A stretch of 64,000 bases of DNA from assembly GCA_030018935.1 (NCBI GenBank), contig JASEGZ010000001.1, positions 33,290 through 97,289 of the forward strand, given 5' to 3'. Within the stretch, counting starts at the first letter, position 1. Every line of letters starts with the position of its first letter. This stretch comes from Syntrophales bacterium (GTDB lineage: Bacteria > Desulfobacterota > Syntrophia > Syntrophales > CG2-30-49-12). This document shows positions 4,658 to 47,183 of this stretch, piece after piece. Position numbers and translations under genes: made by a program. The notes under the pieces are model-generated. The model had not been told where the DNA came from. It saw only the letters and a list, made by a program, of their open reading frames with translations, and ran no database searches.

Positions 4658-4749
4658 GGCTGAAGGCTGAAGACTGAAGGCTATAAAACATCTCGCAAGA
4701 CACGAATCAAGCCATTCAAAACCTTCATAGCCTTCAGCCTTCAGCCTAT
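4658..4749. repeat. heptamer-arm hairpin, family B (TGAAGGC/TGAAGAC)
   Basis: The left arm is ggctgaaggctgaagactgaaggctat, the right arm atagccttcagccttcagcctat, with a 42-nt loop. Lies between rho and rpmE. Confidence 0.9.
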
Positions 4750-4761
4750 CCACCTAAGAAT

Positions 4762-6009
4762 TTACTGATTCATGGAATCTAAGAAGGCCTGATTCGTTTC
4801 TGTCTTCCGTATCTTGTCAATGATAAATTCCATGGCATCCAACGGATTCATCTCCTGAAGAAGCCTCCTTAATATCCATATCCTGTTGAGGTTATGCTTC
4901 AGTATCAGGAGTTCTTCCTTTCTGGTACCGGAACGGATGAGGTCAAAGGCGGGAAACACCCTTCTATCAGCGATCCTGCGATCTAAGTGCAGTTCCATGT
5001 TTCCGGTTCCCTTGAACTCTTCAAAGATGACTTCATCCATTCTGCTTCCTGTGTCAATGAGGGCTGTGGAAATAATGGTCAGGCTGCCCCCATTTTCGAT
5101 GTTCCTGGCGGCGCCGAAGAATCGTTTCGGTTTGTGCAGGGCATTGGAATCAACGCCACCGGACAGGACCTTGCCGCTGGGTGGAACCACCGTATTATAG
5201 GCCCTGGCCAGCCTGGTGATACTGTCAAGAAGGATGACGACATCCCTGTTATGTTCGACGAGACGCTTCGCCTTTTCAATGACCATTTCGGCAACCTGGA
5301 CGTGCCGTGCAGCCGGCTCATCAAAGGTCGAGGATATGACCTCCCCCGCCACATTTCGCTGCATATCGGTCACTTCTTCGGGACGTTCATCAATCAGCAG
5401 AACCATCAAAATGACCTCTTTATGGTTAGTGGTAATACTGTGGGCTATATCCTGAAGTAAAACCGTTTTACCCGCCCTCGGGGGGGACACGATCAGCCCC
5501 CTCTGACCTTTACCGATGGGCGTAAAAAGGTCTATAATCCTTGTGGATAAGTTTCCCGGATTGGCCTCAAGGTTCAGTTTCTCCTGAGGATAAAGTGGTG
5601 TGAGGTTGTCGAAGAGGATTTTGTCTCTCGCTGCCTCGGGATTCTCAAAATTGACCGTATCCACCTTGAGAAGGGCAAAATATTTCTCTCCCTCCTTGGG
5701 TGGTCTGACCTCACCTGAGACCGTGTCTCCGGTCCTCATACTGAATCTTCGGATCTGCGAGGGGGAAATATAGATATCATCTGGACTGGGGAGATAGTTA
5801 TAATCTACCGCCCGGAGAAAGCCAAAACCATCCGGCAGGATTTCCAGAACACCGGCCCCGGAAATCACCCCATTTTTTTCTGCTTGGGCCTGCAGAATAG
5901 CAAAGATCAGATCCTGCCTCCTCAGGCCGCTGGCACCATTGACATTTAACTCTTTGGCCATACTTGTAAGCCTACTGATTGGTTGTCTCTTGATTTCCTC
6001 AATATTCAT
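4762..6009 (-). CDS. rho: transcription termination factor Rho
   Basis: ORF runs 4762-6039. The likely start is ATG at 6009 ([14 protein letters not shown]), preceded by AAGGAA. Walker A is [11 protein letters not shown], and Rho N-terminal and RNA-binding regions are present. Confidence 0.93.
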
Positions 6010-6285: not shown

Positions 6286-7251
6286 TCATACAAGATGATT
6301 TCTACGCCTGAGAAAATCACAGAGCCTGGCCATGTCGTCCGGCATGGGAGACGAAAAAGTCATTTCCGCATTGTTAATGGGGTGGGAGAAGGCAATCCGG
6401 CTTGCATGCAGCGCCTGCCTGGTCATTGTTCTCATCTCTGCCCTCAGAAGCGGATCCCCTATGGCGCCGACTCTTCTTGAGCTGCCGTAGATGTTGTCCC
6501 CCACCACAGGGTAACTCATGGCGTTTAAGTGGACCCTGATCTGGTGAGTCCTTCCCGTTTCCGTATCCACATCGAGGAGGGTTGCCACCCGGTACCTCTT
6601 GGAGACCCGCCAGCGTGTGATGGCCTCCCTTCCCCTCCTGCTCCTCGTGGACATCTTCTTTCGATCCACGGGGTGCCTTCCCACCGACGCATCAATCATG
6701 CCCTGATCCCCTTCCACATCTCCATACACGAGAACCTTGTAACTTTTCTGAACCTGATGTTTCTTGAACTGGGCGGCAAGCCCCCGGTGGGCTTCATCGG
6801 ATTTGGCCACGACCAGCAGGCCGGATGTTCCCTTATCCAGGCGGTGAATAATTCCGGGTCTCAAGACCCCCCCGATTCCTGAGAGATCCTTGCAGTGGAA
6901 GAGGAGGGCATTGACCAGGGTGCCCCGATCGTGACCCGGCGCTGGATGGACGACCATCCCGGCAGGTTTGTCAACCACAAGGAGAAAGGGATCTTCATAA
7001 ACAATGGTCAGGGGAATCTTCTGGGGAAGGACATGGTAGCTTGCCGCTGCCTTCTTGCAGAGGTGAACGGTATCGCCGTTTCTTAATTTGTAGCCTGCCT
7101 TTACTTTTAGATCGTTAACCAGCACCAGTCCTTCATCCACAGCCCTCTTGATCTGTGAACGGGATAGAGTCAGGTCCTTTCGGGAGAGGAAGATGTCAAG
7201 CCTCAGGCCGCTTTCATGACATGCCACAATAAATGTATATTTCTCACTCAT
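6286..7251 (-). CDS. rluD: RluA-family 23S rRNA pseudouridine synthase (RluD-like)
   Basis: 321 aa with an S4 domain N-terminus and catalytic motif HRLDKGTSGLLVVAK. Confidence 0.85.
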   Translation of the reverse strand: MSEKYTFIVACHESGLRLDIFLSRKDLTLSRSQIKRAVDEGLVLVNDLKVKAGYKLRNGDTVHLCKKAAASYHVLPQKIPLTIVYEDPFLLVVDKPAGMVVHPAPGHDRGTLVNALLFHCKDLSGIGGVLRPGIIHRLDKGTSGLLVVAKSDEAHRGLAAQFKKHQVQKSYKVLVYGDVEGDQGMIDASVGRHPVDRKKMSTRSRRGREAITRWRVSKRYRVATLLDVDTETGRTHQIRVHLNAMSYPVVGDNIYGSSRRVGAIGDPLLRAEMRTMTRQALHASRIAFSHPINNAEMTFSSPMPDDMARLCDFLRRRNHLV

Positions 7252-8663
7252 GTGGAAACGGCGTGTTTCAATCCATCTCTGATGAAGGCAAATTCCTCCT
7301 CTTCAACCGTTCTCAAATCAAAAAGGACCTGTTCTTCGGCGACCCTCGCAATAATAGGGACATCGAGACACCTCAGGCGTTCCTCCAGGGAGTTGGCCGA
7401 CATGCATCCCGGTTGAACGGCCAGCAGCATCGTCGGAATCTCGCAGGTGGGAAGAGACCCTCCCCCGGCCATAGAGAATCCCTTCTTCAGAGATAAAACT
7501 AACCCTTTTAGGCGGGCTCTTCTCAGCATGGCCAGAAGCCTCTTTGCCCTCTTTGTAACATCCGTCAGGGGTTCCGTCAGGGTCTTTAGAACCCGGAGAC
7601 GGCAGGCCGCCTTCTCCGGACGCAAATACTGGATCATCGTTGCCTCGAGAGCGGCGAGGGTCAATTTGTCAATCCGGACTACCCGGTTGAGGGGATTCTT
7701 CTTAATCCGCTGGAGGAGTTCCCTTTTCCCAAGGATAATGCCCGCCTGGGGGCCACCTAACAGTTTATCGCCACTGAAAGAGACCACATCCACTCCCGTT
7801 TCCATGACATCGGAAACAGTAGGTTCCCTCTCCAGACCATAATGGTCCAGCTCGAGAAAACAGCCGCTTCCCAGGTCCTCCATTACCGGCACGCCACGTT
7901 TTTCACCGAGCGCCACCAGTGATGCAAGCCCCGTATCCTCGGTAAAGCCCATCATCTTGAAATTACTGGTGTGGACCTTCAGGATAAGCCCGGTATTTTC
8001 CCCGATGGCGTTTTCATAATCGCTGATACGGGTTCGGTTGGTTGTACCCACTTCCCTAAGGTGGGCTCCGCTTTTGGCCATCACCTCCGGTATGCGGAAC
8101 TCACCGCCGATTTCAATAAGTTCTCCCCTCGAGACGATGACCTCCTTCCCCTCGGCTAAGGTGTTGAGAATCAGCAGGACGGCAGCGGCATTATTATTGA
8201 CGATCAAGGCATCTTCCGCCCCTGACAGGGCACAGAGAATACTCTGTATATGGTCATATCGGAGACCTCTCTGTCCCCTGGCCAGGTCAAACTCGAGGTT
8301 TGAGTATCCTCCGCCGACCTCCAGCACCCTTTCGAGGGCTTCCCTGCAGAGGGGGGCCCTGCCCAGATTGGTATGCAGGATGGTTCCCGTTGCATTCACA
8401 ACTCTGCGGAGACGGTATTGGTGAAGGACTTCGATGATTTCGGTAACCTTATCTGCAACCTGCTTTGCCACAGGCAGGCGGATACTTATTTCCTCCCCCC
8501 CTGTTTTCATAATTGTGTGTCGTAGATCTTCCACCACCTGCCGGCAGGTAGCTTTTACGATCTCCCGCGGCGCCTTTTCATAAATCCCCTTTTTTTCTAA
8601 AAGGACCAGCAATTCATCAATGCTGGGAAGACTGCTCAACAATGCTTTTTTCCGCTCATCCAT
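7248..8663 (-). CDS. selA: L-seryl-tRNA(Sec) selenium transferase
   Basis: ORF track extends to 8768. The probable start is ATG at 8663 (MDERKKALLSSLPSIDELL), preceded by AAGGAAAGGAA. The PLP-lysine region FSGDKLLGGPQAG is typical of SelA. Confidence 0.9.
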   Translation of the reverse strand: MDERKKALLSSLPSIDELLVLLEKKGIYEKAPREIVKATCRQVVEDLRHTIMKTGGEEISIRLPVAKQVADKVTEIIEVLHQYRLRRVVNATGTILHTNLGRAPLCREALERVLEVGGGYSNLEFDLARGQRGLRYDHIQSILCALSGAEDALIVNNNAAAVLLILNTLAEGKEVIVSRGELIEIGGEFRIPEVMAKSGAHLREVGTTNRTRISDYENAIGENTGLILKVHTSNFKMMGFTEDTGLASLVALGEKRGVPVMEDLGSGCFLELDHYGLEREPTVSDVMETGVDVVSFSGDKLLGGPQAGIILGKRELLQRIKKNPLNRVVRIDKLTLAALEATMIQYLRPEKAACRLRVLKTLTEPLTDVTKRAKRLLAMLRRARLKGLVLSLKKGFSMAGGGSLPTCEIPTMLLAVQPGCMSANSLEERLRCLDVPIIARVAEEQVLFDLRTVEEEEFAFIRDGLKHAVST

Positions 8664-8737
8664 ACTATTCCTTTCCTTTTCCCCTGCCTGTTCCTCTCCT
8701 CCCTTCTCACCCTTCATATTCATTCGAGGCATGCCTT

Positions 8738-8815
8738 TAAGGCACGATCTTGGCCCGGCAAAAATCACGGAAGTTGTTTACCGCAATAAAAAACTCCCGC
8801 ATCATCATGATCAAC
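8738..8815 (-). pseudogene. orphan 3'-terminal fragment of a hemN-like radical SAM gene (copy A of a direct repeat)
   Basis: 8739-8798 is 60/60 identical to 24181-24240, and the match continues to 8815 / 24254 with one 3-nt indel. The minus strand reads ...LIMMMREFFIAVNNFRDFCRAKIVP-stop, which is the C-terminus of the intact gene at 24179-25450 plus one extra Met codon. No upstream coding part is present. Confidence 0.8.
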
Positions 8816-9051
8816 AACCTTTCCTCCCCTATTCTTTCCCTATTGATGTCTATTGTGATTGTGGGAAAAAGGAAAGTAAATACAGTAAATATATGAGAAA
8901 TTATCTTACGGGTCAAGAAAATACCACATTTATCCGATCATGGCCTGAACCACCTCGAGTGGCGTTTCACCTGTGAAGACCTCACCGTTTTCCTCAAGCG
9001 GACGTTGGTGTGGTATCCGTACCAGCGTACCAGATGCAGTTGATCTGTCAA

Positions 9052-9144
9052 AGTAAACAAACCTCAAACTGGTGAATAAATCAGCGGTGGCGAGTTGGGA
9101 AGAGGGAAGAAAAGCCGCTATATGGACGCGCCCCCATGTTAGAG
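9052..9144 (-). other. attC-like site (most distal)
   Basis: Plus strand reads AGTAAAC ... aaatcagcggtggc ... gccgctatatgg ... GTTAGAG. The 14-nt inner arm aaatcagcggtggc is shared with the attC at 14901-14958. Confidence 0.5.
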
Positions 9145-9413
9145 TTTGTCGAGTGGCTTCAGCTATAAGAGTTACCTCCTATGGCTTCACTCCCAGCTAC
9201 CTGGATGAATGAGGAATTTCCAGGACAGGTCTCTCACCTGCAAGCCTTGAGTCCTCCACGGCGCACTTTTCCGCATCCGGCTCTTCAGGCAGGCTCACAG
9301 ATAATCTCTGATAGCCGAATCAGTTCCGTTCACAATGTTTCTCCAGGCTCTGTGTCCTGCATTGTCTCCCTTCCTCAGTACACCCGCCTGTCAACCCCTT
9401 CCCTCCACCGGCA

Positions 9414-9908: not shown

Positions 9909-10000
9909 GGATAACGGTATCAGCATAAAAGAAGTTTTTGCGAAGCCAAAATGTGGGTGAACCCGCCTCTGGCGGACGAAGCTTTTATGCTGTGTTAGGC
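9909..10000 (-). other. attC site
   Basis: GGATAAC ggtatcagcataaaagaag ... gaagcttttatgctgt GTTAGGC, a 92-nt imperfect palindrome. Confidence 0.65.
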
Positions 10001-10866: not shown

Positions 10867-11622
10867 TTATTTCTTTCCTGAGTTGAATTGAATTACTTTT
10901 TCCCAATGAATTGCTCCGGTTGAATCGCAAAACATTTCCATAAATTCAAGGGAAAACTTATTGATAACCTTGCTGTCTTCTTCAAGAAATTGATCGTTTT
11001 TCTCTTTTGCTCGATGCCCAAGAGGTTCGATAATTTCAGTATATAAGTTGTCGTTGCCAGAAATAAAGGCCCAAAATCTTTGTCCACACAATTTCAGGTA
11101 TTCGCCTTTGTCGGGATTGTTGTCTTTGCCGTAACAACAACCATTGACTGCAATAACATTGAGAGATGAAGCAATGTTGGTTCCCAAAATACGCTTGGCC
11201 TTGCTAAAATTATCCTTCATTTTATTGATCTGGCTTGAGTTACCCCAGTTTGGCCCAGATTTAATGGAAACAATGTATTTAGCACTATCTTTTTCAAGCT
11301 CTAAGTCAATTCCTTCGGCAGAGGATTTGCTGCCATGATAAACATAGTTGCAAATATAAATTGCTAATCCTTCGAGAAAGCTACCGAATAATGTTTCTTC
11401 TTGTGAGGATAAATGAGCATCAAGAATCGTTTTTATAAAATCGCCAGCGGTAGTGATATGCTTGACCTTGAAAAGATAAGGATTTTTACGCTTGAGTACC
11501 GCTTTCAATTTGAGTTTCTTCAACTTTTCTATTCGGTTGTGATGAAACTCCGGTATCTTTCTCTCGACATACTCCGCTATTTTTTCTTTGGTTATTGGTT
11601 TTTCTTTGGTTATTGGTTTCAT
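10867..11622 (-). CDS. putative type II restriction endonuclease (TdeIII/Eco47II-like)
   Basis: ORF 10867-11706, likely start MKPITKEKPITKEKIAEYV at 11622. The motif EGIDLELEKDSAKYIVSIKSGPNWGNSSQ looks like a PD-(D/E)XK-type core, as I recall it from TdeIII/Eco47II-family enzymes. Adjacent to a methyltransferase. Confidence 0.55.
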   Translation of the reverse strand: MKPITKEKPITKEKIAEYVERKIPEFHHNRIEKLKKLKLKAVLKRKNPYLFKVKHITTAGDFIKTILDAHLSSQEETLFGSFLEGLAIYICNYVYHGSKSSAEGIDLELEKDSAKYIVSIKSGPNWGNSSQINKMKDNFSKAKRILGTNIASSLNVIAVNGCCYGKDNNPDKGEYLKLCGQRFWAFISGNDNLYTEIIEPLGHRAKEKNDQFLEEDSKVINKFSLEFMEMFCDSTGAIHWEKVIQFNSGKK

Positions 11623-12463
11623 ATTCAGCTTCGTCCTCGCATATTCTGTACTGATACTGGGCTGTCCTTTTTTGTGCAAGTTTGCAATATTCAGGAAGAA
11701 CATCAATGCCCACGGAGTTTCTGTTTAAGTTTTGGGCCACCTCTGCGGTAGTGCCGGAACCGGCAAAAGGGTCAAGTACCCAATCGTACTCTTTTGTGAA
11801 CAATTTAATAAACCATTCCGGTAGAGATTTTGGGAAAACTGCGCTGTGATTTTTGTTGTAACACTCGGTTGCAAAATGCAAAACATTTGTAGGATAAGCC
11901 ACGTCTCGACCTACCCAGTTTGAAATATTCTTGCCAAACCCGCTATTAACTTTTGATTCATCCCTGGTACGGTCAGTGTCGCTGAGTTTTTTTAAGCGAG
12001 TTTTTGCCCAATCACCCATAGTAACCATGACTTCTTCCTGGTACATATTGAACTTCTTGGATTTGTTAAATTGCAGACAACGTTCCCATGAGTCTCTAAA
12101 GCGGTTCGGCCATTTTCCAGGGAAACAATTCTTTTTATGCCATACAAACTCCTCTGTCCAAAGCCACCCCTGCTTACGTAAGGCTAATATTAACTCTATT
12201 ACGTATGTATGGCGTTCTCCATTGACCGCTTTTTCTTTTATGTTGAGAACAAAAGTGCCATCTATCTTTAGAACCCGAAGGAATTCTTTTGCTCGTGGCA
12301 AAAACCATTCAACATATTCATTTGGTTTGATGCCGCCGTATGTTTTACTTCTACTATCTGCATACGGTGGTGAAGTGATAATTAAATTAAAGAAATTATC
12401 TGGATACCGTTTAAGCACCTCTAAGCAGTCACCATTTTCTATTTTTGTTTTAATTTGTTCCAT
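11486..12463 (-). CDS. DNA methyltransferase, N4-C/N6-A beta class
   Basis: 325 aa with motif IV SPPY (IITSPPYADS) preceding motif I DPFAGSGTT, the beta-class order. The C-terminal ~45 aa overlap the REase gene out of frame and may be read-through. Confidence 0.85.
   Translation of the reverse strand: MEQIKTKIENGDCLEVLKRYPDNFFNLIITSPPYADSRSKTYGGIKPNEYVEWFLPRAKEFLRVLKIDGTFVLNIKEKAVNGERHTYVIELILALRKQGWLWTEEFVWHKKNCFPGKWPNRFRDSWERCLQFNKSKKFNMYQEEVMVTMGDWAKTRLKKLSDTDRTRDESKVNSGFGKNISNWVGRDVAYPTNVLHFATECYNKNHSAVFPKSLPEWFIKLFTKEYDWVLDPFAGSGTTAEVAQNLNRNSVGIDVLPEYCKLAQKRTAQYQYRICEDEAEYETNNQRKTNNQRKNSGVCREKDTGVSSQPNRKVEETQIESGTQA
11584..11619. repeat. perfect 18-bp tandem duplication in the MTase/REase overlap
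   Basis: ttctttggttattggttt x2. Encodes KPITKE-KPITKE in the REase frame and TNNQRK-TNNQRK in the MTase tail. Confidence 0.95.
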
Positions 12464-15703: not shown

Positions 15704-16003
15704 GCTATCTATTCTCTTTTTTGTTAAGTTTGGACTTCTTTTGCCATGGATTACAGCTAAGACAGTTATTCTTTCTTCTTCAAGCAGATAGATTATTTTG
15801 TATGGAAACCTCTTGATGAGGTATTTTCTTGTTTCTTTATACTCTGCTGGACAAATCTTCGGATTTCTTTCTATGAATCTCAGCCCAGCATCAACCTGCA
15901 AAAGAAAGTCGTAGCCCAATCCTTGCCTTTTGTCTTCATACCAAGAGAAAGCTTCCTTCAGGTCATTTTCAGCCTCAAGCCTGATGATAACTCTATATCT
16001 CAT
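15698..16003 (-). CDS. RelE/ParE-family toxin
   Basis: Likely start MRYRVIIRLEAENDLKEAFSWY at 16003, a 4-nt ATGA overlap with the antitoxin stop. The ~100-aa size and the ...RFPYKIIYLLEEERITVLAVIHGKR ending are typical of ParE/RelE. Confidence 0.8.
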   Translation of the reverse strand: MRYRVIIRLEAENDLKEAFSWYEDKRQGLGYDFLLQVDAGLRFIERNPKICPAEYKETRKYLIKRFPYKIIYLLEEERITVLAVIHGKRSPNLTKKRIDSI

Positions 16004-16221
16004 TTTTTGCTCACTATTCTCTTGAAAACATCCTCCCACGGAGAACCTAAATCAGGATTCTGATGATACGCCTCTAATCTTTCATCGATTATCTTCTTTT
16101 CTTCTTCAGTTAATTCGACCGAGCCAGCTTCTACAGCTATCGTATCCCAAATGTCCTCTACCAGTTGAATTCTCTCTGGGATTGATAAATCAAGAGTATC
16201 AGTTACAGCAAGCGTTTTCAT
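16000..16221 (-). CDS. putative addiction-module antitoxin
   Basis: The track begins at TTG 16257. ATG at 16221 (MKTLAVTDTLDLSIPERIQLVEDIWDTI) follows AGGAGG. The pattern resembles the small 'addiction module component' family that pairs with ParE toxins. Confidence 0.7.
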   Translation of the reverse strand: MKTLAVTDTLDLSIPERIQLVEDIWDTIAVEAGSVELTEEEKKIIDERLEAYHQNPDLGSPWEDVFKRIVSKK

Positions 16222-16435
16222 AATCCATATCCTCCTTTTTTCTTTTTCATCTAACAATTAATATACGTAATGTCTTACATACTGCCCGATAGTCGTCATA
16301 TTTAAAAGAATGCAGCAAATTTAGACTGGTTTATCTGAAAAGTCAAAGAAATTTCTTTAAAATTTACCGATAATATGTTTATTATCACCCAATAAGTAAT
16401 CGGTATATTATCGACCCTTTAACAGGGAGCTGTTT
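16222..16435. promoter_or_regulatory. attI / divergent promoter region of the integron
   Basis: AT-rich 214 nt between the first cassette and intI. The minus-strand GTTAGAT core (plus ATCTAAC 16249-16255) sits at the first cassette junction. Inverted repeat ccgataatat / atattatcga at about 16365-16415. Confidence 0.45.
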
Positions 16436-17746
16436 GTGAAAGAAATTTTGCCTGATTTCCAAAAGTATCTTGTTGAACATAAGCTCGTACCAGAGGGGCA
16501 TGTTTCCTTTTATGCCTTGTGGACGAGCAAATTCCTTTTCTTTTCCAACAAGCATCAGGATAAATCAATAGTGCTTAGAAAGAGGCTTTTTCTTGATTCC
16601 CTGATGAAAGAGCAAAAGTTACAGGACTGGCAGGTGCATCAGGTGGAAAACGCCATCGGGCTTTATCTGAATCATTTTCTGTCCGGCGATGTTTCGTTAT
16701 TGTCACTAAATGCTGAACCCGTTTTTCAGAACAGGTTTCCGGATTATCAGGAAATGCGGGAGACGCTCCGGGAGGCGATAAGAATCAAACATTATGCCTA
16801 CAGTACTGAACGTACCTACATAGATTGGTTCCAGAGGTTTTATGCTTATGTTACCGCTATAAAAGGCAAAGATTGGCAAAAGGGTGGTGCTGATGAGACG
16901 GATGTCAGAGATTTCCTGAGTCACCTGGCCGTCAGGCAGAGGGTGTCATCATCTACTCAGAATCAGGCATTCAATGCTCTGCTTTTTCTCTTTCGGGAAG
17001 TACTCAAGATTAACCTCCAGGACCTCAGTAAAACAGTGCGGGCCAAAAGAGGGTCAAAGATCCCTGTCGTATTGACACAGGATGAAGTCAAACGGCTGCT
17101 TAACGAGATAGGGGGCAGAAATTTGCTCATCATCCAGATTCTGTATGGCACGGGCATGAGGCTCATGGAACTTGCCCGGTTACGTGTTCAGGATATCGAT
17201 TTCGGTCTGAATTCGATTATTGTCAGAGCAGACAAGGGGGACAAAGACAGGATGACCATCATGCCTGAATTCGTAAAAGAAAGCCTGAAAGAACATCTTT
17301 CCAGGGTAAGGAAATTTCATGAAAAAGACTTGGAAATGAAACATGGCGAGGTATATCTGCCGGAAGGTCTTGACCGCAAGTATCCGAATGCAGGCAAGGA
17401 ATGGGGATGGCAATATGCTTTTCCTTCGGCTACGCTTTCCGTCGATCCACGGACGGGGAAGGTGCGCCGCCACCATATAAGCCCCAGTTCCATACAAAAG
17501 ATAGTGGCGGCGGCGGTGAAAAAAGCGGGGATTGCCAAACATGCCAGTGTTCATACGCTGCGCCACAGTTTTGCCACACATTTGTTGATGAACGGTGTAA
17601 ACATCCGCGAGGTTCAGGAATTGCTCGGCCACAAGAACATTGAGACTACAATGATTTATACCCATGTTCTCAGGAATATGTCGAAAGCGCCGGAAAGTCC
17701 GCTGGACATACTCCTGCGGCAAGAGAAGGGGCATCCATCGCCATGA
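16436..17746 (+). CDS. intI: integron integrase
   Basis: 436 aa, GTG start after GGGAG. Tyrosine recombinase boxes (HTLRHSFATHLL, LLGHKNIETTMIYTHV) are present, plus the IntI-specific insertion GLDRKYPNAGKEWGWQYAFPSATLSVDPRTGKVRRHH (IntI1: [37 protein letters not shown]). About 100-aa N-terminal extension relative to IntI1. Confidence 0.9.
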   Translation: MKEILPDFQKYLVEHKLVPEGHVSFYALWTSKFLFFSNKHQDKSIVLRKRLFLDSLMKEQKLQDWQVHQVENAIGLYLNHFLSGDVSLLSLNAEPVFQNRFPDYQEMRETLREAIRIKHYAYSTERTYIDWFQRFYAYVTAIKGKDWQKGGADETDVRDFLSHLAVRQRVSSSTQNQAFNALLFLFREVLKINLQDLSKTVRAKRGSKIPVVLTQDEVKRLLNEIGGRNLLIIQILYGTGMRLMELARLRVQDIDFGLNSIIVRADKGDKDRMTIMPEFVKESLKEHLSRVRKFHEKDLEMKHGEVYLPEGLDRKYPNAGKEWGWQYAFPSATLSVDPRTGKVRRHHISPSSIQKIVAAAVKKAGIAKHASVHTLRHSFATHLLMNGVNIREVQELLGHKNIETTMIYTHVLRNMSKAPESPLDILLRQEKGHPSP

Positions 17747-19323
17747 CAGGGAATATACTAAAACTTGAAGATATTGATCTCAATTCCCAGTTCCGCCGTG
17801 CGCTTGAGCTGATGGAAGAGACGGATAAAAACATCTTCATTACAGGCCGGGCGGGTACCGGTAAATCAACGCTGCTTCAGTTTTTTCGTTACCACACAGG
17901 TAAAAATGCCGTGATTCTGGCGCCGACGGGCGTGGCCGCCGTCAATGTAGGCGGGCAGACCATCCATTACTTTTTTCATTTCAAACCGAATGTGACGCTG
18001 GCATCCATCAAAAAGAGAAAGAGCAAGGAAGAAGACAAACCGACAATTTACAAAAAGCTCACCGCAATTGTGATTGATGAGGTCTCGATGGTGCGTGCCG
18101 ACCTGCTGGACTGCGTGGATAAATTCCTACGGCTCAACGGTCCCGATCCAAAAAGACCCTTCGGCGGCGTGCAGATGATCTTCATCGGCGATCTGTATCA
18201 ATTGCCGCCCGTTGTCTCCAGCCGGGAAAAAGAGATATTCCGCGGGCATTATAAAAGCCCTTATTTCTTCAGCGCCGAAGTTTTCGGACAACTGGATATG
18301 GAGTTTGTCGAACTGGAAAAAGTTTACCGCCAGAATGATGATGAATTCATCCGTCTGCTCAACGCGATCCGTAACCGCACGGTTTCGGATGACGATCTGG
18401 CGCTGTTCAACCGCCGTTGTGATCCCTTGTTTGAAGCACCCGTCAATGAATTTTATATTTCGCTGACCAGCGTCAATGATACGGCCGATTCAATCAACGA
18501 GCGGCAACTTTCCCAATTGCCCGGCAAAATATGGAAAGCGCAAGGTCTGATCGAAGGGGAATTCGACAAGGAATATCTTCCGACAGCCTTGGAATTGAAA
18601 CTGAAAAAGGGCGCCCAGATCATGCTCCTGAACAATGATTCCTACGGACGCTGGATCAACGGCACCATAGGCAAGGTAACGGGATTTAAAAAAGATGACG
18701 AAGGCGAAGAGATCATTACCGCCAGATTGGATAATGGCAATATTGTGGAAATCGGTTACTACACTTGGAAAATATACCGTTTTTTCCTGAAGAATGGGGA
18801 GCTTTGTTCCGAAGCCGTTGGCTCGTTTACACAATATCCGGTGCGGCTGGCCTTTGCCGTTACCATTCATAAAAGCCAGGGCAAAACCTTTGAGAAGGCC
18901 GTCATTGATGTGGGACGAGGCACTTTTGCTCATGGACAAATGTACGTGGCGCTTTCGCGCTGCGTGTCCCTGGATGGGATCATCCTGAAACAGCCGCTGA
19001 AAAAAAGCCATATTCTGATGGATTGGCGTATTGTTCAATTTCTGACGCGCATGCAATACGACAAGGCGGAACAAAAATGCTCTCATGAAGATAAGCTGGA
19101 GATAATTCATTCAGCGATCAAAGAAAAGAAAAATCTGAATATCCTTTACTTGAAAGCAAAAGACGAAAAATCGTGCCGCACGATACGTCCGCTTTTTGTC
19201 GGAGAAATGGAATATAAAGGGCATCCTTTTGTCGGGATGAATGCCTATTGCCTGACGCGTAAGGAAAAGCGCGTTTTTAACGTGGATCGAATCTTGGAAA
19301 TCTGCTTTACGGAAAACAGATAA
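17743..19323 (+). CDS. pif1: Pif1-family SF1B DNA helicase with C-terminal WYL-like domain
   Basis: 526 aa. Walker A is GRAGTGKSTLL, motif II is VIDEVSMV, and FGGVQMIFIGDLYQLPPV and TIHKSQGKTF are present. The C-terminal ~75 aa (NILYLKAKDEKSCRTIRPLFVG...YCLTRKEKRVFNVDRILEI) fit the WYL pattern. The start ATG overlaps the intI stop (ATGA). Confidence 0.85.
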   Translation: MTGNILKLEDIDLNSQFRRALELMEETDKNIFITGRAGTGKSTLLQFFRYHTGKNAVILAPTGVAAVNVGGQTIHYFFHFKPNVTLASIKKRKSKEEDKPTIYKKLTAIVIDEVSMVRADLLDCVDKFLRLNGPDPKRPFGGVQMIFIGDLYQLPPVVSSREKEIFRGHYKSPYFFSAEVFGQLDMEFVELEKVYRQNDDEFIRLLNAIRNRTVSDDDLALFNRRCDPLFEAPVNEFYISLTSVNDTADSINERQLSQLPGKIWKAQGLIEGEFDKEYLPTALELKLKKGAQIMLLNNDSYGRWINGTIGKVTGFKKDDEGEEIITARLDNGNIVEIGYYTWKIYRFFLKNGELCSEAVGSFTQYPVRLAFAVTIHKSQGKTFEKAVIDVGRGTFAHGQMYVALSRCVSLDGIILKQPLKKSHILMDWRIVQFLTRMQYDKAEQKCSHEDKLEIIHSAIKEKKNLNILYLKAKDEKSCRTIRPLFVGEMEYKGHPFVGMNAYCLTRKEKRVFNVDRILEICFTENR

Positions 19324-40857: not shown

Positions 40858-41760
40858 ATGATGGAGGAAAAGATGATAATTATAGGTGAGAATATACATG
40901 TTATTGCAAAGGATGTCTCCATAGCGATAAGGGAGAGAAATGCAAAGGTAATTCAGGACTTGTCAAGGGCTCAAGCTGAGGCGGGAGCTGATTATATTGA
41001 CCTGAATGTTGGTCCCATGAAGAAGGACACGGAAGAGACAATGGAATGGCTGGTCAATACAGTGCAGGAGGTTACCGATTTACCTCTCTCCATAGATACT
41101 ATGAATCCCGTGGCTATGGAAGCAGGCCTGAAGGCTTGCAAGAGGCGACCTTTACTCAACTCTGCCTCGGGGAAGACCGACTCCAAAGAGCAGGTGCTCC
41201 CTTTGGCTAATAAATACAACTGTGATGTGATAATCTCGGTCATGACGGATAAAGGGATGCCGCCTGACGTTGATTCTAAGATCGAGAGCATCATGGACAC
41301 AGTGGCGTATGCCAATGAATTAGGGATTCCCAATGAAGATATCTGGATAGACCCCATAATTCTCCCCGTGGGCACTGCCGGTGAAGGACAGAGGTCCGCC
41401 GTCGTCTGTTTGGAATTTATCAAGATACTTCAAGATGTCCTGCCCGGGGTTAAATCAACAGTGGGACTTTCCAACGTATCCAATGGGGTACCAGCTCAAC
41501 TGAGGCCAATCCTTAACCGTACCTACCTCGTGATGCTGGAGAGAATGGGACTTTATTCTGCCATCGCCGATCCCCTGGATAAAGAGTTTATGAGCCTGGT
41601 GAAAGGGGAGATGCCGGAGATCGTTAACCTTATATACCGGATCATGGATGGTGAGAAGATCGCTCTCTCCTCTCTATCTCAGAAAGAAATTGAATATGCG
41701 AAGACAACCAGGGTTCTTATGGGTGAGACGCTATATTCCGATGCCTGGCTGGAAAGTTAA
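40858..41760 (+). CDS. acsE: methyl-THF:corrinoid/iron-sulfur protein methyltransferase
   Basis: 300 aa pterin-binding TIM barrel (IIGENIHV..., GADYIDLNVGP, SNVSNG). Confidence 0.85.
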   Translation: MMEEKMIIIGENIHVIAKDVSIAIRERNAKVIQDLSRAQAEAGADYIDLNVGPMKKDTEETMEWLVNTVQEVTDLPLSIDTMNPVAMEAGLKACKRRPLLNSASGKTDSKEQVLPLANKYNCDVIISVMTDKGMPPDVDSKIESIMDTVAYANELGIPNEDIWIDPIILPVGTAGEGQRSAVVCLEFIKILQDVLPGVKSTVGLSNVSNGVPAQLRPILNRTYLVMLERMGLYSAIADPLDKEFMSLVKGEMPEIVNLIYRIMDGEKIALSSLSQKEIEYAKTTRVLMGETLYSDAWLES

Positions 41761-42159
41761 TAATTTGGGAAGGAGAATAATCTATAGGGCGGTGTAGACG
41801 ACAACGTCATCTACACCGCTAAACTCAAAGAAAAGGCGACGTTGTCGTCTGTGAACAAGTTATCTGCAATTACGCACAGAGAAAAATATGTATATGACAA
41901 CTCACTGGGACCTTTGCATAACTTGCAAAAGGGGTTCTGAGTGGCGAATCAAAGATTTTTTCTCGATGACAAATGTTTATATCACCGTTTGTTCTCGTTG
42001 GTTTATTAATTTCTCTCACAAGACGCGAAAAAAGATTTTGAGCCACGATGAACCCCTTTTGCAAAGCTCTCTCACTATAATGGGTGTGAGACGAATGTCA
42101 AGCCGTCCAAATCCAGGCAACAATAAGAGCATTCCCATAGATATCGTGAAGGTGGAACC

Positions 42160-42468
42160 GTGAGAAAAAAAGATCAAATAGGACTCCCTGAAGACAAGAT
42201 CGCATCATTCTGTAAGAAGCATCACATCCGAAAGCTATCCATCTTCGGTTCCGTTCTTCGAGATGATTTCGGACCTGGTAGCGACATAGACATCCTGGTG
42301 GAATTCGAGCCCGGAAAGGCACCCAGTTTCTTCCGTCTGTTCGATATGGAAGAAGAATTATCCACCATGATGGGTGGACGAAAGGTGGATCTCCGCACAC
42401 CCGAGGATCTGAGCCGCTATTTTAGGGATAAAGTCTTAGCTGCAGCGGTGGTACAATATGCAGCGTGA
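42160..42468 (+). CDS. mntA: MntA-type nucleotidyltransferase antitoxin
   Basis: 102 aa with the motif FGSVLRDDFGPGSDIDILVEF. Overlaps the downstream HEPN gene. Confidence 0.85.
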   Translation: MRKKDQIGLPEDKIASFCKKHHIRKLSIFGSVLRDDFGPGSDIDILVEFEPGKAPSFFRLFDMEEELSTMMGGRKVDLRTPEDLSRYFRDKVLAAAVVQYAA

Positions 42469-42805
42469 TGACATCGTTTGTGTCCGCCATATCCTCGATG
42501 CCGCTCGCAGGGCCATGCATTTTGCACGAAACCGCACCAGGGAGGATTTAGATAGCGACGAAATGCTATCACTATCTCTGGTACACCTTCTGGAGATAAT
42601 TGGCGAGGCGGCAAATGGTGTGACGATCGGTTTTCGGGAGAAACATCCCCATATACCCTGGAAAAAAATGATTGGATTGCGCAACCGATTGATCCACGGG
42701 TATTTTGACATCAATCTCGACATTGTATGGGATACGGTCATGGAGGACCTGCCACCCCTTGTAGCAGACTTGGAGAAGATAGTTCCATGGGAGGAAACAA
42801 CTTGA
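42458..42805 (+). CDS. hepT: HepT-type HEPN (DUF86) toxin
   Basis: 115 aa with the Rx4-6H motif in GLRNRLIHGYFDINLDIVW. Confidence 0.85.
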   Translation: MQRDDIVCVRHILDAARRAMHFARNRTREDLDSDEMLSLSLVHLLEIIGEAANGVTIGFREKHPHIPWKKMIGLRNRLIHGYFDINLDIVWDTVMEDLPPLVADLEKIVPWEETT

Positions 42806-42922
42806 GAACCGCCATGGACCAGCTCATCGTCAATTCTCGATGTGATAAGACGGCAGTTCATTGGCGTTACGAACACGAAACACGCTCATCCATCCTCAAC
42901 AATCGTGTTGTATTCGAAAGTG

Positions 42923-43042
42923 GCGTAACAGCAGATAACAGAGCGTATCTGGCTTCGTGCCTTCGGCACTCCGCCCAAATTCCTTGCTTCGCTCGGAACT
43001 TCAGATACGCTCAGCCGGGTGAGCTTCATTTAAAGGTTACAT
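42923..43042 (+). other. attC-like palindrome after the MntA/HepT module
   Basis: GCGTAAC / AGATAAC ... gagcgtatctg (42941) ... cagatacgctc (43002) ... GTTACAT (43036). Box-to-arm spacing is asymmetric, so the call is tentative. Confidence 0.35.
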
Positions 43043-43135
43043 CTCCCAATAACATTAAGGCAGTGATGAAGACAGGCGGATTTGGTGGCTCCAATTGGAG
43101 CAAATAAGGACACGGTCTGATTTGTTTGCAATGGC

Positions 43136-43211
43136 GGCTAACATCAGGCTAAAAGGAAAAAGATTTCGCGACAAATGCTATCGCGCTTCTTTTAGCCTGC
43201 AACCGGTAGGC
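43136..43211 (+). other. attC-like palindrome
   Basis: GGCTAAC at caggctaaaagg ... cgcga/tcgcg ... cttttagcctg caacc GGTAGGC, 76 nt with symmetric architecture. Confidence 0.45.
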
Positions 43212-43573
43212 AAAACGGTGGCTTTATCGGATAATTATAACGAGGAAAGGCTGGAGGGGCATCACCGGCATCATCGAAGCGATCCGAGCAAATCGAGTTC
43301 GGATCACCGACCATGCTGATGAAGAAGCCGAGGGCCGATTAACTCACGTTTGATGAAATCTACTTCTCGGTTCTTCACGGTGAAATCATCGAGGATTATC
43401 CGACCAACAGGCCGTATCCGAGCTGTCTGATATACGGTCGGACCTTCGGTGGCGATCCTGTCCATAGTGTTTGGGCATATAACGAGCAGAACCGATGGGC
43501 CGTCTTGATCATGGTTTATCGGCCTGATCCCGATCTGTGGATCAACTGGCGGGAAAGGAGAAAGAAGCAATGA
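43210..43573 (+). pseudogene. DUF4258-like toxin gene, frameshifted and lacking an obvious start
   Basis: Frame 1 reads ...IIEAIRANRVRITDHADEEAEGRLTHV-stop. The adjacent frame continues LTFDEIYFSVLHGEIIEDYPTNRPYPSCLIYGRTFGGDPVHSVWAYNEQNRWAVLIMVYRPDPDLW. A single extra A near 43340 would explain the shift. The stop overlaps the ygiT-like ATG. Confidence 0.55.
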
Positions 43574-43812
43574 TGCCATTTGAGAAGTGTCCGATTTGCG
43601 GTGGTGAATTGGTGGCGAAAGAGGTTGAGAAACTCTTGCGAAGGGGGATTCATACTGCCATCTTGAAGGTGCACGCTGAGGGTTGCCTGCACTGTGGGGA
43701 CCGCCTGTATTCACAAGAAACTGTCAGGCGATTTGAAGAGATCAGAGCCAAACTGGAGCGCCGGGAGACGGCAGATTTTCAACCCCTGGGATTATCGTTT
43801 CAGGTGGTGTAA
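43570..43812 (+). CDS. YgiT/MqsA-type zinc-finger antitoxin-like protein
   Basis: Likely start MMPFEKCPICGGEL at 43570. It has two CxxC pairs (CPICGG ... CLHCGD). Confidence 0.7.
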   Translation: MMPFEKCPICGGELVAKEVEKLLRRGIHTAILKVHAEGCLHCGDRLYSQETVRRFEEIRAKLERRETADFQPLGLSFQVV

Positions 43813-43938
43813 CAAGTTCGCTGAGTTTTGCTGACCTCCGTATGGAATTGATGAGATATTTTAACAAAATTTGCGGTAGAAGTGAATTAAGAGATGCTCA
43901 CAGAGCCTTGATTTTCAAGCATCTGTGAGATGTTGAAC
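43807..43938 (+). other. attC-like palindrome at the right end of the insertion
   Basis: GTGTAAC (43807) ... gctcacag / ctgtgag ... GTTGAAC (43932, fits GTTRRRY). Confidence 0.35.
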
Positions 43939-43967
43939 AGGCTACTTATCTGGGAAGGAGGTAAAGA

Positions 43968-44864
43968 ATGGAATACAGGGCACCAGTTGAAGCTTATACG
44001 GGAATGGTAAGGGAGGTGACAATCGGCAAGGGAGAAAAGGCAATAAAGATCGGAGGGGAGAATAGGCTCCCCTTACATTTCTTTGACCAGGGATCCTGTC
44101 CCAACCCTCCGAGGTTTGCCTTACAAATCCTTGATATGAAACCCACGGATTGGCCAGATCACTTAGTCGAGCCTTTCCGGGATGTAATATCCGACCCGGT
44201 AAAATGGGCCAAGAGATGTGCGGAATTCGGCGTAGATGCCATCGCCCTTTATCTTATCAGCACCGATCCGTCGGAGAAAGATACCTCTGCTCAAGAGGCA
44301 GCAGCGATGGTGAAGAGGATAATTGGTGAGGTAAATCTCCCCTTAGTTCTCTACGGCTCAGGGGATGAGAAAAAGGACGGAGAAGTTCTCTCTAAGGTTG
44401 CCGAGGTGTGTGATGGCGAGAATCTCCTTATGGGTCCGGTGCAAAAGGAGAATTATACAGTGGTGGCAAAGGCAATCTTAGACCATGGACATACCGCTAT
44501 TGCCCAGACACCTCTCGATATCAATCTCCTTAAAGAACTGAATGTCAAACTCTGTAAGCTCCTCCCCCCGGAGAGGATTGTCATTGATCCCCTATCCTCC
44601 CCGCTGGGCTATGGCATGGAGTACAGCTTTTCTTTAATGGAGAGGGTAAAACAGATCGGAATAGTCACCGAGGATAGTATGACACAGATGCCGATTATTG
44701 CCAATCTTGGTGATGAATGCTGGAAGGCAAAGCAAGCAAAAGAGAACAAGGAACAGGGCCTGCTCTGGGAAGGGATAACAGCCCTCTCACTTCTCCTGGC
44801 CGGGGCAAATATCCTTGTTTTGAGACATCCCGAGACATTGAAATTGGTGAGAGAAACCATCTAG
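43968..44864 (+). CDS. acsD: corrinoid iron-sulfur protein small subunit (ACDS delta)
   Basis: 298 aa. The N-terminus MEYRAPVEAYTGMVREVTIGKGEKAIKIGGE is typical of CdhD/AcsD. Sits in the cdh cluster. Confidence 0.85.
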   Translation: MEYRAPVEAYTGMVREVTIGKGEKAIKIGGENRLPLHFFDQGSCPNPPRFALQILDMKPTDWPDHLVEPFRDVISDPVKWAKRCAEFGVDAIALYLISTDPSEKDTSAQEAAAMVKRIIGEVNLPLVLYGSGDEKKDGEVLSKVAEVCDGENLLMGPVQKENYTVVAKAILDHGHTAIAQTPLDINLLKELNVKLCKLLPPERIVIDPLSSPLGYGMEYSFSLMERVKQIGIVTEDSMTQMPIIANLGDECWKAKQAKENKEQGLLWEGITALSLLLAGANILVLRHPETLKLVRETI

Positions 44865-44879
44865 TGAGGAGGTGAAAAG

Positions 44880-47183
44880 ATGGCTGAATTGAAGGAGATA
44901 AGAAAGAGGTTAGAAGAAATTGAAAAGTTGATAAAGGCAGAGATTGCCTGGGAACCGGTAGGTCCCACACCAATGCCGGAGGTTCCTGCTCTCAGAAATT
45001 GGGATATGAGGCTTCTCAAAACGTATGCGCCGTGGTATGCCCCTTTTTGTGATCTTTGCTGCCTGTGCACCTTTGGGAAGTGTGATCTCACTGAGGACAG
45101 GAGAGGGGCCTGTGGTATTGATATCGCGACGCAGCAGGCAAGGATGGTGCTTTTAGCTTGCCTGATAGGATGTTCATGCCACACTGCTCATGGCGCTCAT
45201 ATTCTGGAGTACCTGATTGAAAAGCACGGTCCGGATAAAAAGATAGATCTCGGTAGAGGAATTGAGGTGGAAGCGCCACATATAAGGACAGTTATTGGCT
45301 TAAAGCCTGAGACCCTAAGCGATCTTAAAATAGCTATCGAGTATGTCTATAAGGAGATTACCCATCTTCTCGATTCCGTTCATACGGGGCAGGAGGGGAG
45401 TTATCTGGATTATGAATCCAAAGCGCTGCACGCCGGTATGTTGGATCATGTGGGAATGGAGGCAGCCGATATCGCACAGATCGTGGGATTTAATTATCCT
45501 ACCTCCGTTGCAGAGACACCCCTGGTAGGTCTGGGATGGGGGGCAATAGATAAGACCAAGCCGGTAATTTTAGTGGTGGGACATAATCCGGTTACTTCTA
45601 CGGCACTTATTGATTACTTAAGGGCGAATAACCTCTATGACAAGGTCGAGGTCGGTGGTATATGCTGCACTGCCCTGGAGACAACCAGATACTCGGATAG
45701 GGCCAAGGTCGTTGGCCCGCTTTCCCGGCAGCTCTTCTTCCTCAGGACAGGTATCCCCGATGTCATCATGACCGATGAGCAGTGCATCAGGACTGACATG
45801 CCGATAGAGGCCTCCAAAGCTGGCTCAGCGCTTATTGCCACCTTGGACAAGGCGATGTATGGGCTTCCCGATGCCACAGAGATGGCAACGGAAGAGATAG
45901 TAAAACAGATGGTCGGGGAGAAGAAACATTTCGCTATCCTTGAACCAGCGAAGGCAGCAGAGGTGGCAGTAAAGGTTGCCATGGAGATTGCCCCCCAGAG
46001 GAAGAAAGAGTGGCTATCTGAGGAAGAGGCTAAAGGACTGGCAGAAAGATGTAACGATTGTGGCATGTGTGAGCGGGTATGCCCTAATCTCTTCTCCATT
46101 GGTGACGGTATAATTGAGGTTGCCAAGGGCAATTTTGACCTCATAAGGGAGCAATTCAGACGATGTATCGGCTGTGGAAAATGTGAGGAGGAATGTCCTC
46201 GTGAAGTTCCCATTTTCAAGATAATGCAGACGGCGGCAAGTAAGGAGAGCTGGAAGATAAGGGCAGGCCGTGGTCCTATTATGGATACCGAGATCAGGAA
46301 TGTGGGGGCCTCCATAACGCTGGGCACGATCCCTGGAGTTGTTGCCTTCGTCGGTTGCTCCAACTATCCTGATATAGAGGACCTTGCCGAGATGGTGGAG
46401 GAGTTTGCCAAGAGGAAGTATATCGTCGTTGTCTCAGGTTGTGCGGCCATGGTTGCGGGTATGAAAAAGGATGCCGATGGCAAGACCATCTATGAGAAAT
46501 ACCCACCCGATTTTGATGGTGGTGGGATAGTAAATGTAGGTTCCTGTGTTGCTAACAGCCACATCACGGGAGCGGCAATAAAGGTAGTTAATATCTTCGC
46601 CAAACTCCCATTAAGGGGAAATTACGAGGTAGTAGCCGATCACACCCTGAACAGGCTCGGTGCCTGTGGTGTGGCCTGGGGGGCATATTCTCAGAAGGCG
46701 GCAGCTATTGGTACGGGATGTAATAGATTGGGTATTCCTGTCATACTGGGACCTCACTCCTCCAAATATAGGAGGCTATATCTCTCGAGAAAAGAGGAGG
46801 GTGATTGGCGGGTCATGGATGCAAGGACGAAGGAAGTCGTTGATACAGGAGAGCCTGCACCTGAGCATCTCACCTATGTATGCGAGACCAAGGAGAAGGC
46901 GATGGTGATGATCGCCAAACTGTGCATAAGGAGGAATGATACCCCCCAGGGAAGGGCGATAAAACTGAATCACTATATATCCCTGTACAAGAAATACATG
47001 GGAGGTGGTCTTCCCGAAGATCTTCATCTCTTTGTTCGCAGGGATGCCGATCTCCCCATAGTCTATAAGAAGGAAGCGAGGGTATATCTACAAGAAATTG
47101 GCTGGAAACCAAAGGAACCTGTGGGACTTCCAACTCTGATCGGCACTTACCCCAGCAAGGTTTCTGTGGATTCTGTTATCTAA
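44880..47183 (+). CDS. cdhA: CO dehydrogenase catalytic subunit, archaeal ACDS alpha type
   Basis: 767 aa. N-terminal Cys cluster region FCDLCCLCTFGKCDL...ACGI and an inserted 2x[4Fe-4S] ferredoxin domain (CNDCGMCERVCP, CIGCGKCEEECP). Followed by an epsilon subunit gene. Confidence 0.85.
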   Translation: MAELKEIRKRLEEIEKLIKAEIAWEPVGPTPMPEVPALRNWDMRLLKTYAPWYAPFCDLCCLCTFGKCDLTEDRRGACGIDIATQQARMVLLACLIGCSCHTAHGAHILEYLIEKHGPDKKIDLGRGIEVEAPHIRTVIGLKPETLSDLKIAIEYVYKEITHLLDSVHTGQEGSYLDYESKALHAGMLDHVGMEAADIAQIVGFNYPTSVAETPLVGLGWGAIDKTKPVILVVGHNPVTSTALIDYLRANNLYDKVEVGGICCTALETTRYSDRAKVVGPLSRQLFFLRTGIPDVIMTDEQCIRTDMPIEASKAGSALIATLDKAMYGLPDATEMATEEIVKQMVGEKKHFAILEPAKAAEVAVKVAMEIAPQRKKEWLSEEEAKGLAERCNDCGMCERVCPNLFSIGDGIIEVAKGNFDLIREQFRRCIGCGKCEEECPREVPIFKIMQTAASKESWKIRAGRGPIMDTEIRNVGASITLGTIPGVVAFVGCSNYPDIEDLAEMVEEFAKRKYIVVVSGCAAMVAGMKKDADGKTIYEKYPPDFDGGGIVNVGSCVANSHITGAAIKVVNIFAKLPLRGNYEVVADHTLNRLGACGVAWGAYSQKAAAIGTGCNRLGIPVILGPHSSKYRRLYLSRKEEGDWRVMDARTKEVVDTGEPAPEHLTYVCETKEKAMVMIAKLCIRRNDTPQGRAIKLNHYISLYKKYMGGGLPEDLHLFVRRDADLPIVYKKEARVYLQEIGWKPKEPVGLPTLIGTYPSKVSVDSVI

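Follow-up and report, generated by a model that had tools for sequence, protein, structure and literature searches.

How did a set of toxin-antitoxin (TA) genes come to lie inside the acetyl-CoA synthase operon of a syntrophic bacterium, and were they brought there by an integron? The question is raised by a window of 64,000 nucleotides (nt) from an uncultured Syntrophales bacterium (contig JASEGZ010000001.1 of assembly GCA_030018935.1), which is the whole stretch analysed here. Its three plus-strand operon genes at 40858-47183 encode an acsE-type protein, CdhD and a CdhA-type carbon monoxide dehydrogenase. Domain and family scans identified the acsE-type methyltetrahydrofolate:corrinoid methyltransferase at 40858-41760 and CdhD at 43968-44864, both on the plus strand, and an identical CdhD protein is found annotated in a Syntrophales metagenome-assembled genome. 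The 2.2 kb between the two genes contain an MntA/HepT pair, a DUF4258 pseudogene and an MqsA/YgiT-type open reading frame (ORF), all genes being co-oriented. Gene calls and domain scans agree in this with a preliminary description of the locus, which had seen 2.2 kb of other genes in operon orientation between the end of acsE at 41760 and the start of cdhD at 43968, and had read them as integron cassettes. We conclude that the block is probably a horizontally acquired islet of integron-derived cargo in an insertion hot spot, the acsE-cdhD spacer, and that its cassettes were probably loaded by the integron integrase IntI.

The genomic contexts of the closest CdhD relatives (82-86% amino-acid identity) show that the block is an insertion. 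In five contigs from four CdhD clusters (L001, L002, L006, L007 and L009) the acsE-cdhD spacer measures only 22-27 nt. The junction in L002 and L006 reads GAAAGTTAATAATTTGGGAAGGAGGTAAAGAATGG, which is exactly the window sequence minus the block and one copy of the 10-nt sequence TGGGAAGGAG, so that joining the two repeats does restore a short spacer as had been proposed. An empty site is also present in L013, the sole locus revealed by a CdhD scan of species-representative genomes. A different cargo of 3.8 kb is inserted at the same nucleotide in L003, as well as in L004, L005 and L010, the last of these a JGI contig. It comprises an SDH-type ClpP-like protease, small ORFs, a UPF0175/DUF3368 TA pair and a 469-aa ORF, and is flanked by TGGAAAGGAG on the left and TGGGAAGGAG on the right. 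The presence/absence polymorphism that the preliminary description had suggested looking for in relatives is thus real, and the acsE-cdhD spacer is a polymorphic insertion hot spot.

The islet is laid out as a 10-nt repeat, an 84-nt left end module (LE), the cargo, a 65-nt right end module (RE) and the second 10-nt repeat, and its features are given here as read on the plus strand. The two exact repeat copies were located where they had been described, at 41766-41775 and 43951-43960; the only third exact copy in the 64 kb is at 4032. The right copy is the working Shine-Dalgarno (SD) sequence of cdhD, as in the relatives with empty sites. The left copy is an orphan SD, as a start codon at working distance is found behind the right copy only; the nearest in-range start after the left one is a GTG at 41792 with a TAG directly after it. 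The earlier claim that only the right copy serves as ribosome-binding site therefore holds. In L003 the left copy has drifted to TGGAAAGGAG.

LE (41776-41859) is identical to L003/L010 at 83 of 84 positions and can form two mutually exclusive hairpins (41789-41819, and 41796-41808 with 41838-41850). Its 3' end reads ...GTGAACAAG, and the cargo is joined straight after the final G. RE (43886-43950) is identical to L003 at 61 of 65 positions and contains a hairpin at 43897-43929. A blastn comparison of the window block with the L003 insert yielded three common pieces only, namely LE, RE and a 38-nt piece of an attC-like element. Taken together, LE and RE are 96.6% identical between the window and L003 (144/149), compared to 67.7% (357/527) at the fourfold-degenerate sites of acsE, cdhD and cdhA. 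The common ancestor of the ends is therefore much more recent than that of the host genes, or the ends are under unusually strong constraint. The nearest relatives of L003, L002 and L006 (81-82% at fourfold sites), have empty sites. These identities indicate that, compared to the host genes, the islet is recent.

The left-hand part of the cargo, 41860-43018, can be recognised from its boundaries as a genuine and complete integron gene cassette carrying MntA/HepT (cassette A). It starts with TTATCTGCAATTACGC after a G and ends at the G of the R' box of the element attC b1. The 5' boundary, G|TTATCT at 41859/41860, is complementary to the cassette's own R'' box AGATAAC (42933-42939), and the homology to L003 breaks at the same position (G|TTATCTGC at 41859/41860). 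In addition, an inverted repeat of 17 nt (15/17) connects 41859-41875 with GCGTAACAGCAGATAAC at 42923-42939 and ends in the R'' box AGATAAC of b1. This is the signature to be expected if the first bases of a cassette come from the attC of that cassette; we estimate that a match of this kind would arise by chance within 2.1 kb with a probability of about 1e-4.

Two genes that look intact are carried by cassette A. The first encodes an MntA-type nucleotidyltransferase antitoxin (42160-42468; PF01909, E 1.7e-12; motif GS...DIDIL), the second a HepT-type HEPN RNase toxin (42458-42805; PF01934, E 3e-27; motif RNRLIH). The pair at 42160-42805 had already been named as MntA/HepT. Its genes are adjacent and their translations contain the GSx10DxD-type and Rx4H motifs of type VII TA systems; the NCBIfam equivalog scores lie below cutoff. 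A PADLOC run recognised TA-type candidate families only. The 5' untranslated part of the cassette contains a near-perfect long-stem palindrome of about 140 nt (41923-42064) which is unique in the window and missing from the orthologous cassette in L026 (see below). The palindrome may represent a small hairpin element that was inserted here, or a miniature inverted-repeat transposable element (MITE).

The same cassette could be identified in an independent array. A HepT homologue of 92% identity is encoded by L026, a 3.4-kb contig of another assembly, which is an unrelated cassette array with three matches to the attC covariance model R1 described below (E 6e-9, 3e-6 and 2.5e-5) and with canonical R' boxes (GTTAGGC, GTTCTCC). 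Window positions 42120-43012 align to L026 878-1738 with 86.8% identity over 894 nt, and the MntA/HepT cassette is bounded there by attCs of the same family. The cassette starts in L026 with G|TTCTCCGCCATTACGC, homologous to the 5' boundary of cassette A, and the homology stops inside the attC just before R'. At its 3' boundary cassette A is without the canonical GTT, since R' reads GGTGAGC; the orthologous attC of L026 reads GTCATTG. Occurrence of one cassette in a different array or context, by which we judged mobility as a unit, is thus seen for cassette A.

The first two of three palindromes that had been proposed as attC sites proved to be attC-type elements. The boxes of the first, b1, lie at 42933-43024 instead of at the GCGTAAC/GTTACAT ends originally chosen; its R'' is AGATAAC, its R' the degenerate GGTGAGC, and an 11-bp L stem (GAGCGTATCTG/CAGATACGCTC) encloses two inner hairpins. 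The second, b2, is separated from b1 by 112 nt and was correctly placed at 43136-43211 (R'' GGCTAAC, L stem CAGGCTAAAAG/CTTTTAGCCTG). Its R' is GGTAGGC and not a GTT box, one change away from the family's GTTAGGC. Both share one geometry with attC a6 of the window's own integron (9909-10000, minus strand), their closest relative in the window, and with c1 of L003 (2942-3027): a 7-nt R'' is followed after 1-2 nt by one arm of an 11-bp stem, then by inner hairpins and the other arm of the stem, and after 5 nt by a 7-nt R'. The alignment partners of b1 are a6, c1 and the L026 attC at 1663-1750, and the stems have changed in a compensatory manner (CAGCATAAAAG in a6, GAGCGTATCTG in b1, GTGGATAAAAG in c1).

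Model R1 was built from a6 and c1 only, without b1 and b2. It scored b1 with 24.0-24.5 bits (E 0.001-0.003) and b2 with 23.5 bits (E 0.002-0.004; the plus strand scores above the minus strand). These two were the sole new matches in 123 kb, with the same result when the filters were switched off, and no matches were obtained in another 71 kb of unrelated loci. By homology and shared geometry b1 and b2 belong to the same attC family as a6. The third palindrome, 43807-43938, is missed by both of our attC models and the claim that it is an attC has to be abandoned; its hairpin at 43897-43929 is the one of RE, which is common to L003.

It is highly improbable that the palindromes are ordinary terminators or elements like repetitive extragenic palindromic (REP) sequences in a block unrelated to integrons, and we strongly disfavour this explanation. 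It would account for the lack of GTT in b1 and b2 and for L027, where a copy of the TA pair at 83% identity lies in a non-integron context without such an attC. It could also draw on the silence of R2, a canonical attC model made from a1-a5 of the resident integron with the variable loops trimmed, which finds no match in the block. However, R2 performs poorly on its own long-loop members (a1 21 bits, a5 12.4 bits, a3 a 9.8-bit end fragment only), and because it is insensitive even to its training members its silence says little. Against terminators or REP-like repeats also speak the homology of b1 and b2 to an attC in a bona fide array beside IntI, the same cassette and attC in the L026 array, and a cassette 5' boundary that is complementary to its own R''. 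With a position weight matrix of canonical attC 5' halves, no sequence outside the training set scored above 12, and a truncated attC at 43809 is unsupported by it.

The integron which had been reported some 25 kb away is indeed present. Its integrase IntI (16436-17746, plus strand) reaches 409 bits on TIGR02249 versus a cutoff of 265; it is the only IntI found in the window and lies 24 kb from the block. Starting from G|TTAGAT at about 16256, the cassettes extend leftwards on the minus strand, and seven attC sites (a1-a7) were located between 15703 and 9909. The first cassette contains an 85-aa ORF (16000-16257), which we take to be an antitoxin, followed by a ParE-family toxin, and the R'' of its attC is ATCTAAC. 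With an integrase above cutoff beside attC-bounded cassettes, the window holds a complete integron at approximately 9.3-17.7 kb. As the attC family is the same, it is plausible that the block was seeded from this integron.

The islet of integron-derived cargo was most likely assembled in three steps. First, a small LE-RE element or an earlier cargo would have inserted itself into the spacer and duplicated 10 bp containing the cdhD SD sequence, and because of this copying cdhD would have kept a ribosome-binding site. Next, IntI acting in trans, possibly the one encoded 24 kb away, would have inserted the cassette or cassettes at the G that ends LE, a recombination of attC with a non-attI (attG-type) site. 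Cassette A abuts LE with a canonical G|TT junction. Finally, the attCs would have lost the GTT of R', which would have frozen the cassettes in place, and one toxin gene would have died. IntI1 is known to insert cassettes at minimal GWT genomic sites, where expression from resident promoters is possible and attCs can later be lost (10.1101/2022.09.11.507474). As the cassette genes are co-oriented and free of strong terminators they could be transcribed with the operon. There is also an obvious selective logic for the duplicated repeat, since its RE-side copy is a full SD before cdhD.

The R' boxes read GTTATCC in a6, GGTGAGC in b1, GGTAGGC in b2 and GATAAGC in c1, which means that none of the three full-length operon copies possesses the conserved GTT. 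In L026 (GTTAGGCGAAATGG) and in a collapsed attC of L003 one sees the cassette start that is usual for the family. A few sites suggest that b2 (GGTAGGCAAAACGG) and c1 (GATAAGCAAAATGC) could be point-mutated descendants of this usual start.

The collapsed attC lies at L003 3825-3841, after the UPF0175/DUF3368 TA pair, and reads GCCTAAC-GGGAAC-GTTAGGCGAAATCC (GTTAGGC), so that the R'' and R' boxes are 6 nt apart. It looks like an attC with its centre deleted, as proposed for replication slippage.

Several observations weigh against loading by IntI as the explanation of the islet. The 3' junctions are GGT (b1, b2) or GAT (c1) and not GTT, and GGT lies outside the published GWT consensus. R1 is a home-made model from two sequences and its E-values are rough, and with seven lineages in total the comparison is a small sample. 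The cargo junctions of L003 are not canonical cassette boundaries, and genes are cut there: the 469-aa ORF corresponds to residues 1-454 of homologues with 571 aa, its homology ending exactly at the start of RE, and the match of the SDH-type protease starts at residue 6, just past the end of LE, at profile position 34. At the right-hand cargo/RE junction of the window no attC is present. LE has no similarity to the resident attI region, from which its motif AGACGACAACGTC is absent. Moreover, IntI recombination makes no target duplication, and the 10-nt repeat therefore needs a second mechanism. Integron recombination thus explains neither the repeat nor the conserved ends. Neither LE nor RE was attC-like or attI-like by the tests run, the folded circular junction of RE, direct repeat and LE gave no attC-like structure, and Rfam at permissive thresholds returned nothing credible for 41700-44000.

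A rival explanation is an integrase-less site-specific integrative element, comparable to a cis-mobilisable one. The whole unit from repeat to repeat would then use TGGGAAGGAG as a core of about 10 bp together with a recombinase encoded elsewhere, and the cassettes would be passengers picked up in integron-bearing hosts. We regard this as rather unlikely. It agrees with the use of the same junctions in both islets with an exact (window) or near-exact (TGGAAAGGAG, L003) repeat, with ends that are 97% identical where neutral sites are at 68%, with the empty sites in the closest relatives of L003 and with the truncation of the L003 cargo genes exactly at the LE and RE borders. It also agrees with the lack of terminal inverted repeats, as judged by eye; the left end AATAATCTATAGGG and the right end GATAAGTAGCCTG, taken in reverse complement, have nothing but ATAA in common. 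An identical core at both junctions and precise empty sites (L002/L006), as asked of such elements, are present, but the recombinase which they should encode is missing: domain scans found no recombinase domain in the window block or the L003 cargo. In addition, no circular junction was observed, and the LE stem pattern was met only at the same locus type. A scan of JGI metagenomes with this pattern returned the L003-type locus (L010) and two chance matches, and scans of viral collections with the LE stem pattern and the RE hairpin returned zero matches.

The whole islet was also considered as a DDE-type transposon or MITE. This was rejected, as the repeat is present but terminal inverted repeats are lacking and no transposase was found in the window block or the L003 cargo.

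Other lineages carry further elements in the same acsE-cdhD spacer. L008 has a palindromic MITE-like element of about 130 nt (5500-5637) with the inverted ends GTAACTA(C/T)TCAGGT and an apparent AAGTTTAT duplication. In a more distant sister lineage (L014 1383-1479, also L015-L023) the spacer measures 95 nt and contains an orphan SD (AGAAAGGAGG), a REP-like double hairpin and then another SD, an arrangement with duplicated SD that recalls the repeat-insert-repeat structure of the islet.

A single ancient insertion that was spread by homologous recombination via the acsE 3' and cdhD 5' ends, with turnover of the cargo and with empty sites that are partly secondary deletions between the repeats, is in our view unlikely. 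Beside the repeats, the window, L002 and L003 have identical host flanks over about 38 nt on the left and about 25 nt on the right, and crossovers there would be traceless; the spacer also tolerates other insertions, as the L008 palindrome and the hairpins and two SDs of the L014 group illustrate. However, homology as short as this recombines inefficiently, and no donor-type tract is seen outside the conserved flanks; over its first 150 nt the cdhD of the window is 82% identical to L003 and to L002 alike. The origin of the repeat and the exact cargo breaks at LE and RE would also be left unexplained. Homologous-recombination tracts were sought to prove or exclude transfer by flank homology, but flank conservation is too high to tell. 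With host flanks identical across lineages, site-specific insertion and recombination through short flanks are indistinguishable.

A further possibility, which we hold to be quite unlikely, is that LE-RE is an integrase-less docking platform. Such a platform would insert at the cdhD SD with a 10-bp duplication and offer an attI-like G| site (…GTGAACAAG|), at which IntI in trans would load cassettes. If true, this would be a mobile 'orphan attI' plugging cassettes into a strongly expressed essential operon.

The islet can be compared with attC sites that lack an integron integrase. Such sites were reportedly described by Cury and co-workers in 2016 under the names CALIN and SALIN. A CALIN comprises at least two attC sites, not more than 4 kb apart, recognised by the attC covariance model of IntegronFinder, with no integrase within 4 kb. 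The nearest IntI in the window, at 16436-17746, is 24 kb away from the block, and the two attC-type elements of the block lie within 300 nt; the sites were recognised here by a home-made family model. CALIN and SALIN arise when IntI inserts cassettes at genomic attG sites (Loot et al., preprint 10.1101/2022.09.11.507474). As in these, the cassettes of the block lie outside an integron and point in the direction of a resident transcription unit, cassette A has a canonical G|TT junction as its 5' boundary, and the attCs are decaying as predicted for domesticated cassettes. In contrast to a CALIN, the block is bounded by a 10-nt repeat and by end modules of 84 nt and 65 nt, neither of which is made by attC x attG recombination, and its 3' junctions are GGT, outside the GWT consensus. 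The CALIN-like reading of the preliminary description therefore stands as far as two attCs, TA cargo, a polymorphic insertion and no integrase within 24 kb are concerned; it does not accommodate the repeat, LE and RE, the failed third site and the loss of GTT.

With sedentary chromosomal integron arrays the block shares its cargo (MntA/HepT, DUF4258/MqsA-like and ORF-less cassettes) and attCs that are alike within a family (a6, b1, b2, c1 of L003, L026), and the first cassette of the window's integron is itself a ParE-toxin TA module. Unlike such arrays, the block is without intI, recognisable attI and the promoter Pc, and is embedded in an essential metabolic operon. Cis-mobilisable elements resemble the islet in that its short repeat duplicates a functional host sequence and the signal of the host gene survives, that its occupancy is polymorphic and that its ends are conserved with a variable interior. 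They differ in that the islet is very small (2.2-3.8 kb) and no recombinase partner was identified, and in that its target is a ribosome-binding site inside an operon and not a tRNA or the 3' end of a gene. Cassettes located outside integrons are already known; the present locus, a natural case documented by comparison in which they are fixed in a core carbon-fixation operon, adds a new twist but does not represent a new category of system.

In E. coli and V. cholerae it has been demonstrated experimentally that cassettes are able to exit the integron and land at minimal genomic sites. To our knowledge, natural examples of cassette escape with clear before and after states are scarce, especially in uncultured anaerobes. 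The locus described here unites empty alleles, a differently filled allele, the same cassette in an independent array, resident attCs of the same family and visible decay of attCs and of a toxin. The cassettes have landed amid the acetyl-CoA synthase genes of the Wood-Ljungdahl pathway, a central carbon and energy pathway of a syntroph, and from this mid-operon position selfish TA modules can ride on, and possibly disturb, the operon transcript. A second mechanism is indicated by the conserved ends together with the duplicated ribosome-binding site, one by which operon spacers are opened to cargo and the downstream gene nevertheless survives.

The remaining part of the block, likewise read on the plus strand, comprises an ORF-less, cassette-like segment B (43019-43205), the 5' boundary of which is not canonical, and a second TA module. 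The latter had been described as a DUF4258/YgiT pair, which is right for the MqsA/YgiT-type zinc-ribbon antitoxin-like ORF (43570-43812), whose ATG at 43570 overlaps the toxin stop as ATGA. The DUF4258 toxin gene (43255-43573), however, is a pseudogene with a frameshift near 43340; its repaired translation matches PF14076 with E 9e-18, and no ATG, GTG or TTG start is found in its upstream frame. Judged by these translations the right-hand module is decayed: its DUF4258 toxin is dead, and its zinc-ribbon antitoxin is intact.

A weak palindromic match to R1 in an intergenic gap at 4658-4746 (13.8 bits, E 0.56) is probably due to chance. A simple grammar scan for NNNNAAC...GTTNNNN with L-stem pairing gave 10 matches versus about 15 in shuffled sequences and was dropped as unspecific.

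Some features of the resident integron and of the L003 cargo are also worth recording. The IntI ORF is listed with 436 aa, but the integron-integrase model aligns from residue 110 on only; the true start is probably about 300 nt downstream and the attI/Pc region correspondingly longer. Directly downstream of intI, and overlapping its stop, a PIF1-like helicase with a C-terminal WYL domain is encoded (17743-19323). Within the array a complete type II restriction-modification pair (10867-12463, minus strand), consisting of an EcoO109I-like endonuclease and an N6/N4 methylase in overlapping ORFs, follows attC a5, whose R' is ATTGGGC instead of GTT. A group II intron is found at the distal end of the array (7248-9270, minus strand) in the orientation of the cassettes; Rfam RF02003 D1-D4 matches at 9134-9243 (57 bits), and a 506-aa ORF (7248-8768) presumably encodes the intron's reverse transcriptase. 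The intron may lie in or beside an attC (TGTGAAC... at about 9330). Full-length homologues (about 570 aa) of the gene truncated in the L003 islet are present in L024 and L025. They are uncharacterised single genes in defence- and TA-rich neighbourhoods beside CRISPR-Cas, from bacteria and an Asgard-archaeal record.

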